This document shows, piece after piece, positions 27,226 to 60,690 of a stretch of DNA of 64,000 nt; positions within the stretch are counted from its first letter, which is position 1; each line of letters opens with the position of its first letter. Position numbers and translations under genes: made by a program. Below the pieces are notes generated by a model. It saw nothing but the letters and a program-made list of their open reading frames with translations, ran no database searches and was not told the origin of the DNA. The stretch covers positions 84,196,001-84,260,000 of the forward strand of contig OX597827.1 in the NCBI GenBank assembly GCA_951406725.2. Direction: 5' to 3'. The stretch comes from Octopus vulgaris (taxonomy: Eukaryota).

Positions 27226-28038
27226 TTACATAGAAAGTATTTTGCGTAGGATATGAGCAGTTCCCATGAGCACTATCTTTTGAATTTCTGCCATTTTTGG
27301 GTTTCCTGGTATCTGAGTTAGGTAGCTATCAGCCCCTTTTGCTATCATTCCCAGGGCACCTATGACAACAGGTATTGTTTTAGTCTTCAGGTTCCACATT
27401 TTGCTGATTTCTATTTCAAGATCTTTATATTTGCTCAGTTTTTGGTAGGTCTTGACAGATACGTTTATATCGATTGGGACAGTCATATCAATGAGGAGGC
27501 ATGTTCTTTGTTTGAAGTCTTTCAATATGATGTCTGGCCTATTTGCATCTATCTTTCTGTCAGTTTGAATGGTGAAGTTCCAGAGGAGTGAGATGTGGTC
27601 ATTTTCAAGCACTGGGGGTGGTTTGTGTTCCCACCAGTTTTTTTCATGGGGCAAATCCAGGTTTTTACAGATTACCCAGTGAATATATTGTGCAGCTCTA
27701 TCGTGCCTGTTGAGATACTCTGTAGGCGCTAGAAGACTGCACTTGGAGACCACATGATCAATGGTTTCATTTTGTTGCTTGCATACACGACACGTTGGAC
27801 TGCTTCTGATCTTTAATATGTTGGCCTGGTAGTTTCTTGTTGGTAGGCATTGATCTTGAGCTGCTATGATAAACCCCTCTGTTTCAGATTTTAAGCCAGA
27901 GGCCATTAGCCATTGATGGATCAGGGCTTTGTCAACATCTGCATTATTTGCTCTCTTTGGGTATTTGCCATAGAGAGGTTTTTCTTGCCATTTATCATTC
28001 AGAATATCTAAGGCCGCAGATTTAGCACGAGTTTTCAT
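27226..28038 (-). pseudogene. CCHC knuckle and PD-(D/E)xK endonuclease of the Dong/R4 element
   Basis: 270-aa ORF: AAQDQ, CxxC-H-C, RHD, PD...D...K. Confidence 0.9.
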
Positions 28039-28244
28039 GCGCTTAGCTTTTTCTGTGCCCGTTTCTTGTATGTCTATCTCTAATTCCGAAATTTGTTATC
28101 TTCGGAATTCACTTAGATATTCCTTTGCCTGTTTTGTTACTGAGTATGATGCTTTCTTGTTTTCATGTTTTGAGACAAGTTTTAACATCCAGTCCTCAGA
28201 GTTTTTCAGGTAGGTGTCTAGGCCAATTGTAGCAATCTTCATTG

Positions 28245-29627
28245 TTATTGCCAGTTGTAAAAGTCCACGGCTTCCTCTTTTCTTGGCAGATAAAGTCGTT
28301 CTGTATCTGCCTTAGGGTGGTGCATTCTATGCATTGTCAACAGTTTTCGTATTTTTCTGTCAAGATTACATATTTCAGTAATTGACCAGTTAACGATATT
28401 GAAACTGTAAGTCACGACTGGTATGGCTAATGCATTGATCGCTTCGATCCTGTTTCTCGCATTCAGCTCTGTCTTGAGTATTGCTCTTACTCTGCGATAG
28501 CATTCTCTCCTAATCCTTTCCTTCATCTCTGAATGCCTTATTCCTTCTCCTTCAATTACCCCTAGATACTTGTAGTTCTCTGCTGGGTCTAATTCTTTTA
28601 TGACATTCTGCTGGTCAAGGTTAACGTTAGATGTTTCTGTCATTTTTCCTTTGATAAAGGTAGCTTTTGCGCACTTATCGAGGCCAAATTGCATTCTGAT
28701 GTCATCACTGAATTGTTTGACAATCGCTAGTAAACCCTTGAGTTGTTGGTCATTTTTTGCAAAGAGCTTTAAATCATCCATGTAAATGAGATGATTTATA
28801 TTTTTATCAAACATTTTATATCCGTACTGCGCGTCATTGAGCAGTTTTGAGAGAGGTATTAAGGCTAAACAGAAGAGGAGTGGTGATAGTGAGTCACCCT
28901 GGAAAATGCCACATGAAATTTTTACATCACCAGCATTTAGAGATTCATTGTCACTGTTCAAAGTTAGTGTGGTTCTCCATGATCTCATACTTACAGACAA
29001 AAAGTTTCGCAGAGCAGGTGCTATCTTATACATTTCTAGGCATTTATTAATCCAGCTATGTGGTAGGCTATCAAAAGCCTTTTTATAGTCTATCCAGGCT
29101 ATTGATAAGTTTTTGTGTCGTTTGTGACAATCTTCTAAGATCATCTTATTGATGAGTAGTTGATCTTTACAACCATAGAATCCACGTTTACACCCTTTCT
29201 GTTCATTAGGGAATATGCTGCTATCTGTCAAAAAACTATAGGTATATTCCGTCAGGACAGATGTTAGTGTTTTATACATAGTTGTTAAGCAGGTTATGGG
29301 TCTATAGTTTTTGGGTTCATTTATTTCTTCACTTTTTGGAAGCAGGAATGTTAACCCATTAACTAGCCAAGGAGGCATCCTACTAGGGTGTTGCAAAACA
29401 TCATTGTAAAGTTCTGTTAGCAGTTCATGGCTCTCTGGGAAGGCATTCAACCAAAAGTTAGGGATTTTATCCTTTCCTGGAGACTTCCATTTGCTTGACC
29501 TCCTGAGAGCAGATCTTATATCTTCTACCTTGACACCCTCCCACTTTTGCTCTTCTAAGGAGTCCAGTTCTTTAGATATTCTATCAATCCAGGGGCCTTT
29601 TCGCTGTGTGTTTTTTCTTCTGCCCAA
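28245..29627 (-). pseudogene. Reverse transcriptase domain of the Dong/R4 element (frameshifted at both ends)
   Basis: 460-aa ORF with the RT motifs including YMDD. Confidence 0.9.
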
Positions 29628-30587
29628 ATTTTATTCCAAAATCCCTGCACTTCTTCTTTTGATGGTACAGACTTTACAGTAACTGTTGTTTTTCCTATCT
29701 TCCTGTAAAAATTTTTGGGGTTATTTTTGAACATGTTGTTGTCCCTGAAGAATCTAATACGCTTTTCATACCTCGCTATGCGGGTAGCTTTAGCAGATAC
29801 CTTTTGCTTGATGGTTTCTATGGTGGCATCAATATCAAGTATAGTTTTCATATTATATTTTTTCATTAATTTTGGGGTTTTTGTAAGTTTGGTAGTCTTG
29901 TCAACCTTAAGGTTTTTCAAATATTCAATGTCAGACCTAAGTAGTTTAATTTATTGTTGGATACGCTCTTGCCAAGAAGGCTTTTTGTGGGAATGTTGTC
30001 GTTTTCTAATCTTTTCACCACATAGGATCGTTGAGATTTTCGCGGATGCATAGTATAGGTGGTTGAGATCTGTGATATCAACATCATTAGCTGAAATTAT
30101 ATCCTTAAGTGCAAGCCGGATTTTACCAATTATTTTCATGTTTTGGTTAGATTTGCGGATTTTAGGGAGTGAATCACGTTCATCCATACTGGTTTCTTTA
30201 ATTTTCAGCCATTCAATCATGATTTGACGTTTTAGCTCATGTAGTTCTGTCGGGTCAATATTTGTGTGACTTTCTTCATCTATTTGATGTTCATCTGTCT
30301 TAGTGTTTATATTTGGTTCAGGGAGTATTTCACTTTGCCTATCACTTATACTAACTCTTTCAATCCTTACTTCGTTTTTATCAGCTCTGAGCTGGTCTAT
30401 AATTATTTCCTCTGTATTATCTTCTTTAGCTGCAGCTTCGTTCATTCTATCCGTTACTGCTTATCTAATTTGATCAATCTCTACTTCAGTCAGTAATTTT
30501 TTTTATAATGTTTCTTCTGACGTTGGCAAGTTTGTTACTGTCTATGTAGGGTCTTACTTCAGGGTGTTTCTGTCTCCAGTTTATGTA

Positions 30588-31283: not shown

Positions 31284-33540
<2,257 letters not shown>

Positions 33541-43249: not shown

Positions 43250-43769
43250 CATCACAGAAAGAAAAAGTGAGAAGGAGAGAGGGAGAGAGAAGGGATACAT
43301 ATATGACGGGTAGGTAGGTAGGTACATGTTGTCGGGTGTTGGAAGGGTGGAAGGCATCTGTGCATTTTAGGGATGCGGGTGAGTGTTAGGTAAATATGGG
43401 TAGCAGGTTCGGGTGGAGATGAAAGTTATGTGAAGATGAAACTGCTAAATGCCAGCCTTGCATAGCATCACACACGCATACACACACCCACAAAACACAC
43501 ACACACACACGTACGGACACACTCATATACACACACACATTTCCGTCTGCACACATATATGCATGTGTGTGTCGGTCGGTAATCACATCTAAATGCACTT
43601 GCACATACTTAAAGGGTATGTCATTAACACACACACATACACACATACGCACACACACACACACATACGCACGCACGTACACGAACACGCACGCATACAC
43701 CCGCGCTGGCGCGTTACGCCCATATATTCGTCTATGCGTCCTACCAAACGTCCATACATACACGTACAT

Positions 43770-43897
43770 CTGTCTATCTATCTATCTGTCTATCTATCTA
43801 TCTATCTGTCTGTCTGTCTGTCTGTCTGTATATATGTATGTATGTCTGTCTGTCTATCTATTTATATGTATGTCTGTCTGTCTGCCTGCCTGTCTGT

Positions 43898-43934
<37 letters not shown>

Positions 43935-44082
43935 TGTCTGCCTGTTTGTCTGTCTGCCTGCCTGCCTGTTTGTCTGTCTGCCTGCCTGCCTGTCTGTCTG
44001 TCTGTCTATCTGTCAGTCTGTCTGTCTGTCTGTCTGCCTGTCTGCCTGCCTGTCTGCCTGCCTGCCTGCCTGCATGTCTTCA

Positions 44083-44113
<31 letters not shown>

Positions 44114-44126
44114 TTGTCTGTCTGTT

Positions 44127-44202
<76 letters not shown>

Positions 44203-44281
44203 TGTCTGCCTGCCTGCCTGCCTCTCTGTCTGCCTGCCTGCCTGTCTGCCTGCCTGCCTGTCTGCCTGCCTGTCTGTCTGT

Positions 44282-44316
<35 letters not shown>

Positions 44317-44662
44317 CATGTCTGCATGTCTGTCTGTCTGTTTGTCTGTCTGTTTGTCTGTCTGTCTGTCTGCCTGCCTGCCTGCCTGCCTGTCTGTCTG
44401 TCTGCCTGCCTGCCTGCCTGCCTGCCTGTCTGTCTGCCTGCCTGTCTGTCTGCCTGCCTGTCTGTCTGTCTGTCTGTGTATCTGTCTGTCTGTCTGTCTG
44501 TCTGCCTGCCTGCCTGCCTGTCTGCCTGCCTGCATGTCTGTCTGTCTGTTTGTCTGTCTGTTTGTCTGTCTGTTTGTCTGTCTGTCTGTCTGCCTGCATG
44601 TCTGCCTGTCTGTCTGTCTGTCTGTCTGTCTGTCTGCCTGCTTGTCTGCCTGTCTGTCTGTT

Positions 44663-44720
<58 letters not shown>
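43770..44720. repeat. Long mosaic (TCTG/CCTG/TTTG/TCTA)n tetranucleotide tract
   Basis: Direct reading; accounts for the 300-400 aa CLSV/CLPA ORFs. Confidence 0.95.
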
Positions 44721-44721
<1 letters not shown>

Positions 44722-44919
44722 TCAACTCTCTGTTTGTCTGGCTGTCTCAATCTTTGTCATTAAGGTGCTATAATGTTGTGGGTGTTAATGTACGAAACCA
44801 TTAGCTGGGAAGTTTGCCGGTGGGTATCTAGAAAATATTTCCTTTCGGCTCTCTCTCTCCCCTTCTTTTTTTTTTTTCTCTCTCTCTCTCCTCCCTCCCT
44901 CTCTCTCTCTCTCTCTCCT

Positions 44920-57477: not shown

Positions 57478-57543
<66 letters not shown>

Positions 57544-57673
57544 CGGACTATTTTCAGTTTCCGTTAACCAAATCCACTCTATAGAAGAAAACACTTGCCC
57601 AAGGTGCCACGCAATGGGATTGAACCCTGAACCATGGTTGGGAAGCAAGCTTTTTACCACACAGCCACGCCTG
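57300..57673 (-). mobile_element. SINE family A, diverged
   Basis: Reverse-complement homology to family A. Confidence 0.8.
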
Positions 57674-57909
57674 TATGTGTGTATGGATGTACGCACGTAC
57701 ACATATTCAAATATGTATATATATATATATCAAATTATTTTGCAAGATTTGTAATGTGAAATTGTGTGTTGAAACAGATGTACTTTGAGGTGGTCATTTA
57801 TTTGAGGTGGTCATTATATGTAAGTTTGTAATGTGTATACATATACACTCTCTCTCTCTCTCACGCGCGCACACACACACACATTTTAAAGAATTAATTC
57901 GGAAGAGGG

Positions 57910-58016
57910 ACCACAACAATCGTTTCGGCTTTATTCTGCACTGCTCCCTAGTGGGCGTGGAGCGATGTAATAACACCAGATGCTACGCACATTGGAAAAA
58001 AGCCTCATCAGGTGAT
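57910..58016 (-). ncRNA. Type I hammerhead ribozyme motif with canonical core and extended stem II
   Basis: ATCAC CTGATGA GGCTTT..~70 nt..AAAGCC GAA ACGATTGT T GTGGT. Confidence 0.7.
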
Positions 58017-58032
58017 GTAAGATGCTTCACGT

Positions 58033-58135
58033 GTTCCCAGATTTACTTCAAGTTTTATGCTGATGGTGTCCCAACTGCTAGATTCACACCATCAGCATAA
58101 AACTTGAAGCAAAAATGAAAAGTAAATCTGGGAAC
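58033..58135. other. Hairpin with a perfect 24-bp stem, 16-nt loop and a second lower stem
   Basis: 58046-58069 is the exact reverse complement of 58086-58109; 58033-58047 is the reverse complement of 58121-58135. Confidence 0.9.
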
Positions 58136-58378
58136 TGAATGAAGCCGAAATGATTGTCATGCTAATAAATACTCTGTCTTCCGTATTAATCTTTTAAAAT
58201 ATACCCTACGTGCACCTCGGAATACCGGACATAGATCCGACGACGAACGTACGGTATCGATGATGACGCCTGATAGCCATAGGTGGTGAACGTGCTCTGC
58301 AGACAAGCTTTGGACACTATTTAACACCGACTTTCTAAGCCTTCATTCTTCGACTTTAAATTCGACTTTATATATATA

Positions 58379-58725
58379 TCGGGTTCAATCCTACTGCATG
58401 GCACGTTGGGCAAGTGTCTTCTACTATAGCCTTGGGTCGACCAAAGCCTTGTGAGTGGATTTGGTAGACGGAACTGAAAGAAACCCGTCGTATATATATG
58501 TATGTATATATATGTGCGTTCGTGTGTGTGTGTGCTTGTGTTTGCCCCCCAACATCGCTTGAAAACGGATGCTGGTGTTTTTACGTCCCCGTAACTTAGC
58601 GGTTCGACAAAAGAACCGATAGAATAAATACTAGGCTTACAAAGTATAAGTCCTGGGTCGATTTGCTCGACTAAAGGCGGTGCTCCAGCATGGCCGCAGT
58701 CAAATGACTGAAACAAGTAAAAGAA
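58379..58725 (+). mobile_element. SINE family A (5' end clipped)
   Basis: Family A homology. Confidence 0.88.
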
Positions 58726-58886: not shown

Positions 58887-60464
58887 GTTTCAGCTCAGAG
58901 CCGCGGCCATGCTGATGCACCGCCGTTCTGCGCTACACTGCTATTACTAGGAGCCTCCTCTAATATGTGGCACTTGATGAAGAATGGAGTTTGATAGAGT
59001 TAACCTCATTTGCACCTCTTGCCGTAAGGTAGGTTCATCTGGGACTCTTGACAAGAAGATGTCCAGCTTTGATTTTAAAAACCCTACATCTACTTTGCGC
59101 AAGTTCCTCAGACGTTTGGGGAGAATATTAAAAAGCTGTAGGCCCTTGAAACCCAGGCTGTTGCAGTAACAGGTCCTGAAGCGTGATGGCATTGCTGGGA
59201 TCTTTGACACTATGCAGTGTCGTCCCGTTCTGGCATTGGTGTAGCTTTCAATGCCAAAATTTGGCACAGTTCCTTCCAGGATCTTCCAGACATATATTAC
59301 TGCATACCTCTCCCGTCTTCTCTCCAGGGAGTAGAATCTTAGCTGTTTCAACCTTTCCCAGTAGCTGAGCTGTTGCAAAGAGACAATCTTCTTTGTGAAT
59401 CTTCTCTGGATTGCTTCAAGCTCCGCTGTTAATCTCACACTGGTGGGTGACCATAGCTGTGAGCAGTAATCCAGGCGGCTGAGGACAAATGTCCGCCAGA
59501 GGACCATCACAGTTTCCTTATCTCTGGTTCTGAATGTTCTTAGGATCCATTCAGCCAGTCGTCTGTACTTTGCCGCCATCCTGGTAATGTGCACTTGGAA
59601 AGAGGTATCATCACTCATGTCGATACCCAGGTCCCTCACTGATTTAGACTCTGGGATTGAAATTCCCTGTGGACCGGTGTATCCTGTAAGTTTAATATTC
59701 AGTTTTGGATGCTGGTAGCGCAGGGCCTGGAATTTTTCAGCATTAAATTGCATATTATTATCCTCAGCCCATCTGTAGATTGAGTCCAACTCCTGTTGCA
59801 GATGTGCAACATCACTGGGATTCTGTATTTTCTGTGAGACTTTCGTATCATCTGCATAGCTTGCCAGAGTGGCTATCCGGGCATTTGAGGGCATATCTGA
59901 GAGGGCCACTATAAAAAGCAGTAATCCTAAGACAGTGCCCTGTGGAACACCACTCACTATTTGTGTGTTCATAGAGGTGGTTCCATTAGCCACTACTGCC
60001 TGACTCCTATCTTTCAGGAAGTCATTTAACCACACTCCAAGTTTTCCAGCTATGCCGAGGTCACGCAGTTTGTGGCATATCATACCATGATCCACCTTGT
60101 CAAAAGCTTTTGCAAAATCAAGGTATATTACATCCACATTTGATTTGTTGAGTAACTGCCTCAACACCCAGTCATAATGTTGTAAGAGCTGGGTCAGGCA
60201 GCTCCTACCTGGTCGAAAACCATGCTGGGTATCACTCAGCAAGTTATTTTCCTCAAGGAATGTGATTAGTTTCCCTTTGACTATCTTTTCCATGACTTTG
60301 CTGATGTGTGAAGTCAGAGAGATAGGCCTATAGTTTTTGGCATCTGCTCTGCTTCCCCCTTTATGGATTGGGCATATTATTCCCTCCTTCAGCTTGCTTG
60401 CCAGTTTGCCATTTGCAAGAAAGCTCTGGAAGAGAATCTGGAGGGGTTTTACCAGGGCATGTTT

Positions 60465-60465
<1 letters not shown>
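58884..60465 (-). mobile_element. CR1-group LINE, 5'-truncated, with an open RT-to-C-terminus frame (~500 aa) and an intact 3' tail
   Basis: NYRPISLTS, QHGFRPGRSC, YLDFAKAFDKVDH, GVPQGTVLG, YADDTK, LDYCSQLWSP; stop at 58947. Confidence 0.95.
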
Positions 60466-60501
<36 letters not shown>

Positions 60502-60690
60502 AAATACAAAATGGGATAAGAACGCAAAACATCTGGACAGTTAGGTGATACAAAAAGGGACAACAAAACATCCAGATAGACGATACAAAGAAAACGAGGA
60601 CGGGTCATTCGAAGTTTCCTTTCCTCAGTCAAGCGCCAGATTATCCTTGCAATTTCGGCTGATTATATATATTTATATACGTTTATATGC

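Follow-up and report, generated by a model that had tools for sequence, protein, structure and literature searches.

Structure of the locus

The window is a 64-kb stretch of the Octopus vulgaris genome (2.8 Gb, 227 contigs), rich in microsatellites and short repeats. On alignment to long copies, the locus at 57883-58369 consists of two 5'-truncated copies of one dispersed repeat family, arranged head to head. Arm A (57883-58069, minus strand) ends at the short 3' end of the family (TTTAAAAT) against (CA)n/(CT)n and carries an intact hammerhead motif. It has a 22-nt deletion just past the cleavage site, with loss of AATAAA, and a 13-nt deletion near the junction. Arm B (58066-58369, plus strand) ends at the long 3' end against (TA)n. 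AATAAA is present in it at 58164-58169 and the short-end position at 58192-58200; the hammerhead core is gone, removed by a deletion of about 95 nt between 58136 and 58137. The one-sided 3' tail (58201-58369, plus strand) is 169 nt long here and about 190 nt in the family.

The inversion junction (58033-58135) is paired at 37/37 positions apart from a 13-nt indel. It comprises a hairpin of 24/24 pairs (58046-58069/58086-58109) with a 16-nt loop (58070-58085) and, past the indel, 13/13 further pairs (58033-58045/58123-58135). The perfect 24-bp hairpin at 58046-58109 described in the initial annotation is confirmed and, as read from the alignment of the arms, is the junction where these meet. 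The 4 nt GTGT at 58066-58069 are assignable to either arm, an overlap expected if a cDNA end folded back or annealed there.

A mirrored hammerhead remnant had been placed on the plus strand at 58136. The inverted copy is real and starts at 58135; the supposed core CTGAATGA is not a core, as it arose where the deletion of about 95 nt brought upstream GGGAAC-T next to GAATGA of the stem II 3' strand. A model built from the family, with the window copy in its training set, scores 121 bits on the minus-strand motif and 13.8 bits on the plus-strand remnant, matching the 3' end only. An assembly artefact is unlikely as the source of the fold-back, because one 278-nt contig from a public run of unrecorded kind, possibly not independent of the assembly, spans 57928-58205 with 2 differences and no gap.

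The hammerhead motif

The type I hammerhead motif occupies 57910-58016 of the minus strand, with core, three stems and triplet all present. Stem I is formed by ATCAC (58016-58012) and GTGGT (57914-57910), 5 bp in the window copy. The 5' core CTGATGA (CUGAUGA in RNA) lies at 58011-58005. Stem II is formed by GGCTTT (58004-57999) and AAAGCC (57932-57927), 6 bp here with a 66-nt insert between the strands; its base lies at 58004-58001/57930-57927. The stem II extension (57933-57999) has in the family majority a 10-bp helix with two small hairpins at its junction; in the window 57999-57990 pairs with 57943-57934 with 2 mismatches. The 3' part, GAAACGATTGTT (57926-57915), is composed of GAAA (57926-57923), stem III and the triplet GUU (57917-57915). 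The cut is predicted between 57915 and 57914. The A9-to-G12 span is 78 nt. The CUGANGA core, GAAA, A15.1-U16.1 and an NUH triplet are all found in the window copy.

Each part of the complete minus-strand hammerhead that had been listed earlier is thus located within 57910-58016. The long stem II insert is likewise real, at a measured 66 nt rather than about 70 nt. The term canonical is not retained: an Rfam match is absent, and the 5-bp stem I is an accident of the window copy, because the 22-nt deletion brought GT to the place where the family has CT. The stem I of the family is CAC/GUG, 3 bp, followed by AATAAA.

A hammerhead descriptor finds a single site in the 64-kb window, 57910-58016. 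Dinucleotide shuffles give any match in 1/60 at stem I of at least 3 bp and stem II of at least 4 bp, and in 0/60 at the observed stems of 5 and 6 bp. The motif and the perfect 24-bp hairpin are real, beyond chance. A pattern with a gap of 40-70 misses the motif because the actual gap is 78. The covariance-model search proposed with the initial annotation gives no hammerhead match, either at the Rfam gathering score over the whole window or at E<=10 over 57500-58600 (0 among 32 matches). For 14 family loci, no hammerhead is found among the 150 matches listed of 300, in which microsatellite matches to miRNA models dominate. The long insert may be the cause of the Rfam miss.

The repeat family

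The genome search gave 377 first-look candidate loci, and scores were computed for 40 of them. Exact matches to a 19-mer taken from the 3' half of the motif number 42, versus 0 for the control; both core halves and the stem II base are matched exactly in 13 copies, window copy included. The copy number is estimated at a few hundred. The genome-wide copy search suggested with the initial annotation thus reveals a dispersed family with 42 exact 19-mer matches and variable 5' truncation. Between the window motif and the family majority 10/124 positions differ, and the family is therefore considered old and not active.

The 3' ends of 134 distinct arms fall at two places about 190 nt apart (74 short, 58 long, 2 between). 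A microsatellite is present within 30 nt of the end in 104/134 arms, versus 22% of random positions in the same loci. Among 24 other head-to-head loci, 21 are long+short, 2 short+short and 1 long+long (p about 1e-4 against an even split, by hand); this automatic count omits L010, L124 (head to head by another listing) and the window locus, which is also long+short, and scores as short+short a locus, L067, whose minus arm reaches the long end beyond an inserted repeat. Junction positions vary between loci. No target-site duplication is readable in the flanking microsatellites, and no direct (tandem) pLTR pair is seen in the fetched loci. There is no accumulation of 5' ends at the predicted cut (4/120 within 5 nt).

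Three further features of the family are recorded. The 5' ends of 16/116 copies cluster modestly between -194 and -185 relative to the predicted cut, some 90 nt upstream of the core, and possibly reflect an RNA start; the window plus arm begins close to this interval. At L002 (G000:C3:55033746-55034417) a 185-nt tail piece together with foreign sequence is repeated in tandem at least 4 times, without the hammerhead motif. At G000:C21:3541504-3607939 (L239-L241) four copies lie 17-27 kb apart on one strand, and the positions matched in the references are identical for the three fetched, which suggests segmental tandem duplication.

Core and triplet across copies

The alignment holds 64 copies; one, the internally deleted minus copy of L017, is dropped from the 63-copy counts. 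Core position 7 is variable in the 64 copies (T 34, C 13, G 12, A 5) and follows subfamilies; the other six 5' core positions are kept in 87-95%. Clade-fixed changes occur at 0/11 other core positions versus 42/245 columns, a difference that is weak alone (about 0.1, by hand) in copies chosen partly by their 3' motif. The pattern is, weakly, the trace expected of a hammerhead under constraint in the source elements. All 11 core positions and H17 are kept in 27/63 copies.

The triplet is GTT in 51 of the 63 copies and GTC in 1; stem III reads ACGATTGT in 33 and ACGATCGT in 1. A terminal hammerhead-like motif of an ORF-bearing Penelope-like family in the same genome also has GTT (by eye). Decay of CpG had been offered as the origin of the GTT form; on these counts it is rejected, and ACGATTGT/GTT, judged from the copies, is the family's own state.

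Predicted folding and activity

Stem II of the family majority consists of 4 bp, a small loop, 10 bp and two inner hairpins. In stems I and II, 86.8% of alignment cells are paired, far above slid controls. Covariation of the helices, a check proposed with the first description of the motif, does not exceed shuffles (400/500 reach the score); the copies are decayed and derive from few closely related sources, which gives the measure little power. The loop of stem III is 2 nt. Stem III, ACGAUUGU, is self-complementary over its full length, with full pairing possible only between two molecules (-5.8 kcal/mol). The hammerhead fold is not the one of minimum energy (z=0.11) but lies 3.6 kcal/mol above it. 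When the minus-strand transcript is long, the entire motif is predicted to pair with the inverted arm, and RNA read through the junction would have the motif buried in the fold-back.

Self-cutting at the window locus is judged unlikely, and the window hammerhead likely cuts poorly, if at all, by itself. PLE (Penelope-like element) hammerheads of similar build are reported to cleave poorly alone (PMC4209133), and one is reported to cleave only with the protein of its element (PMC11167929). GUU is described as a permitted triplet, and sites other than GUC as weaker in general (PMC2238771). For the source RNA, a two-molecule hammerhead or one helped by protein is likely; the former is proposed because ACGAUUGU pairs fully with itself. 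The motif is uncovered at 90% likeness in two contig sets guessed to be RNA, which carries no weight on expression.

Origin of the insertion

The locus is very probably one old insertion of two 5'-truncated head-to-head copies, likely written by a PLE into a TA/CA microsatellite, and the hammerhead is likely the end-repeat ribozyme of the element, now a decaying relic. The observed basis of this reading is the two-arm anatomy, the family, the two fixed 3' ends, the long/short asymmetry and the deletions. For PLEs, the published accounts describe an inverted 5'-truncated copy, a 30-40-bp tail at one end and a TA bias (PMC8557442), palindromes at head-to-head junctions (PMC3846280), and a tail bounded by two reverse transcription start sites, as seen in vitro (PMC11167929). 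The insertion anatomy matches these three accounts as far as they describe it, and Penelope-type copying is therefore inferred.

By analogy with the PLE literature, a PLE reverse transcriptase-endonuclease would have cut AT-rich DNA, and reverse transcription would have begun at two RNA sites about 190 nt apart; two such start sites lead to one arm with the tail and one without. The arms may have been joined via the 4-nt GTGT/ACAC overlap by fold-back of the first cDNA, which would prime the second arm, or alternatively by annealing of two cDNAs there. The junction-proximal parts of the arms may later have been made identical by template switching or gene conversion.

The inverted pLTR relic of a Penelope-like element named in the initial annotation agrees with the family anatomy. 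The small fold-back retroelement named beside it is not supported as a unit of its own: junctions differ from locus to locus, and the hairpin is the junction of this insertion.

Search for a parent reading frame

The search for a parent ORF comprised upstream walks, 9-10-kb fetches and tblastn with a natural 781-aa PLE protein. No ORF of the family is found; the longest copies reach about 1.4 kb upstream into GT-rich low-complexity sequence, and at 38 further loci, covered as far as 8 kb upstream, nested ORFs of other families are all that is present. The tblastn also gave a few weak unexplained matches (L074/L152, L255, L261). Class membership therefore rests on insertion anatomy, not on a protein.

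Four ORFs are rejected as parents. For the L078-family ORF, the family motif is present in 1/30 of its loci; the ORF at L196 belongs to a young, 98%-identical family with its own end; the element of the L200 ORF stops in a TA run before the family copy; and the L197 ORF has the opposite direction. An RT ORF of the window (58947-60662) is rejected as Penelope-like: it matches RVT_1 only, and tblastn with the PLE protein is blank across the window. This and two other minus-strand stretches (27226-29630 and 31381-32319) are LINE-type ORF pieces with RVT_1 or zf-RVT matches, unrelated to the family. Long open frames on both strands and a weak cysteine-rich repeat match occur at 43628-44773 (plus strand), which is probably a tandem repeat.

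The genome carries ORF-bearing PLE families, including one with a 781-aa RT + GIY-YIG protein. At L201 (2268-3704 and 3626-5968, plus strand), and similarly at L200, a 479-aa frame without Pfam match precedes and overlaps the 781-aa RT + GIY-YIG ORF; this two-ORF Penelope-like element has many intact copies. Other Penelope-like families lie directly beside or inside family copies at L078/L151, L196 and L200, an adjacency in keeping with shared targeting of TA runs. Two young ORF-bearing PLE families end in hammerhead-like motifs with a U3-A8 core variant (by eye), TTGAAAA...GAAAC CG GTC and TTGATAA...GAAAC AT GTT, located downstream of the ORF at L204-L222 and about 950 nt past the stop codon at L200 and L201. 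The U3-A8 variant is described for Schistosoma (PMC4209133).

Within the Penelope-type reading, the family may never have had an ORF and may be a non-coding unit of about 1.9 kb (GT-rich body, hammerhead end), mobilised by a PLE and copied in trans. This is a serious possibility, given somewhat less than an even chance; a lost autonomous element and such a non-coding passenger have about equal odds. The absence of an own ORF within up to 8 kb upstream of the 38 further loci and the fading of every long copy into GT-rich sequence are consistent with it, as are reports that PLE end repeats can mobilise unrelated DNA in trans (PMC3846280) and that retrozymes derive, as is argued, from pLTRs (10.64898/2026.07.22.740005). 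Against this, an ORF could be hidden by a long 3' UTR, given the age of the copies and their heavy 5' truncation, the DNA searches pass over simple repeats with at most 40 candidates scored each, and a fixed far 5' end is not seen.

Second hammerhead-like scaffold in the tail

The tail of the window copy bears the broken remnant of a second hammerhead-like scaffold (58252-58318, plus strand), in which core C3 is A and GAA is removed by a 26-nt deletion. In the tail majority, CUGAUGA and GAAAC-AAG-GUU are bracketed by an 8-bp stem I with one bulge (7 bp and a further pair), and the elements follow one another in the usual hammerhead order. The pattern, defined after being seen, is found in 0/20,000 shuffles of the tail majority. 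It is whole in 6/37 tails, and its core is missing in one subfamily. The stem II region is a long imperfect hairpin that meets the core via one weak pair; natural hammerheads with a 1-2-bp stem II are reported (PMC3088659). A cis double hammerhead between the end-repeat and tail motifs is rejected on inspection: their stem I strands do not cross-pair.

It is rather unlikely, judged from the tail sequences, that the source element had two functional type I hammerheads one after the other, each cleaving 3' of GUU, with the second between the two RT start sites. If it had, two cuts would release or trim an RNA piece that sets the start of copying, which would tie cleavage to the long/short arm asymmetry.

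Alternative readings

The initial annotation had also pointed to metazoan non-LTR retrozymes, small tandem hammerhead repeats that are cut to unit length and circularised. The type I hammerhead, weak stem III and missing ORF agree with these elements as described (PMC7229834). Head-to-tail arrays of hammerhead units are absent from all loci read, the tandem at L002 being tail without motif, while 5' truncation varies over more than 1 kb and few 5' ends (the 4/120 given above) lie at the predicted cut. A retrozyme origin is accordingly very unlikely.

The mismatches between the arms of the window locus are distributed unevenly, with 0/37 by the junction versus 11/56 further out (p=0.003). Two large head-to-head loci, L031 (1064-3164) and L194, have near-identical inner and diverged outer halves (mismatches 2/345 versus 31/344 and 9/222 versus 21/222, respectively). 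L017 shows this gradient slightly, and L020, L030, L063 and L249 lack it. Homogenisation of arms by template switching is described as a neutral process (PMC8604942), and its later action is the simplest account of the perfect hairpin. Host selection on the hairpin, for instance as a microRNA or siRNA precursor, would fit 37/37 identity within a pair of arms otherwise diverged by about 20%; given the like gradient at L031 and L194, the known neutral process and Rfam miRNA matches that all fall far under gathering scores, it is most improbable.

A fold-back DNA transposon (MITE), suggested by the TTTTAAAA-ending stretch in inverted orientation on both arms as its terminal repeats, is scarcely credible and largely refuted by the one-sided tail, one arm extending about 190 nt beyond TTTTAAAA, while interiors and junctions differ at every locus and most fetched arms are unpaired (134 arms, 24 pairs).

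Significance and comparison with known systems

Under the Penelope-type reading, the locus is a dead relic, and the family preserves a clean fossil record of how such elements insert. That long arms are strictly paired with short ones fits the two start sites observed in vitro, with a spacing of 190 nt in this family. Should either hammerhead cut, the 78-nt stem II would mean that ribozymes of this kind escape descriptor and Rfam searches. The second ribozyme between the start sites, if real, would be a testable handle on the purpose of PLE hammerheads.

The head-to-head layout of end pieces is already known for Penelope-like elements. Unusual in the family are the 78-nt branched stem II, the tail of five times the usual length and the second scaffold. 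No description of the family, of so long a PLE tail or of two hammerheads in one PLE end is found in the literature; Repbase, Dfam or supplements may hold it. A repeat annotation for an octopus genome lists 31 Penelope-like families, the words ribozyme and hammerhead being absent from its main text (PMC13282606).

Metazoan non-LTR retrozymes, as described (PMC7229834; 10.64898/2026.07.22.740005), resemble the family in the type I hammerhead and in being repeats without a known ORF. They form tandem units of 150-400 nt, each with a hammerhead, whereas the family is not tandem, is without unit length and is variably 5'-truncated.

The variant hammerheads of metazoan PLEs (Drosophila virilis Penelope type, PMC4209133) share with the window motif a short stem I and a long stem II, and with the family a small palindromic stem III needing a dimer and the occurrence as scattered single copies and opposite-strand pairs 100-700 bp apart. 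The stem II domain of the family has 78 nt, with a 10-bp extension and two inner hairpins, versus 6-8 bp in that account; the family also differs in its GUU triplet and in having no extra base between A9 and G10.1.

The insertion units of PLEs (PMC3846280, PMC8557442, PMC11167929) differ from the family in the tail, about 190 nt versus 30-40 bp in print, or about five times longer here, and further in that the family has no ORF found, a GT-rich upstream body and a second hammerhead-like scaffold in the tail. In the features these accounts describe, they are like the locus in the head-to-head arms, the junction palindrome, the two fixed 3' ends, the tail on a single arm, the TA-microsatellite targets and the hammerhead near the 3' end.
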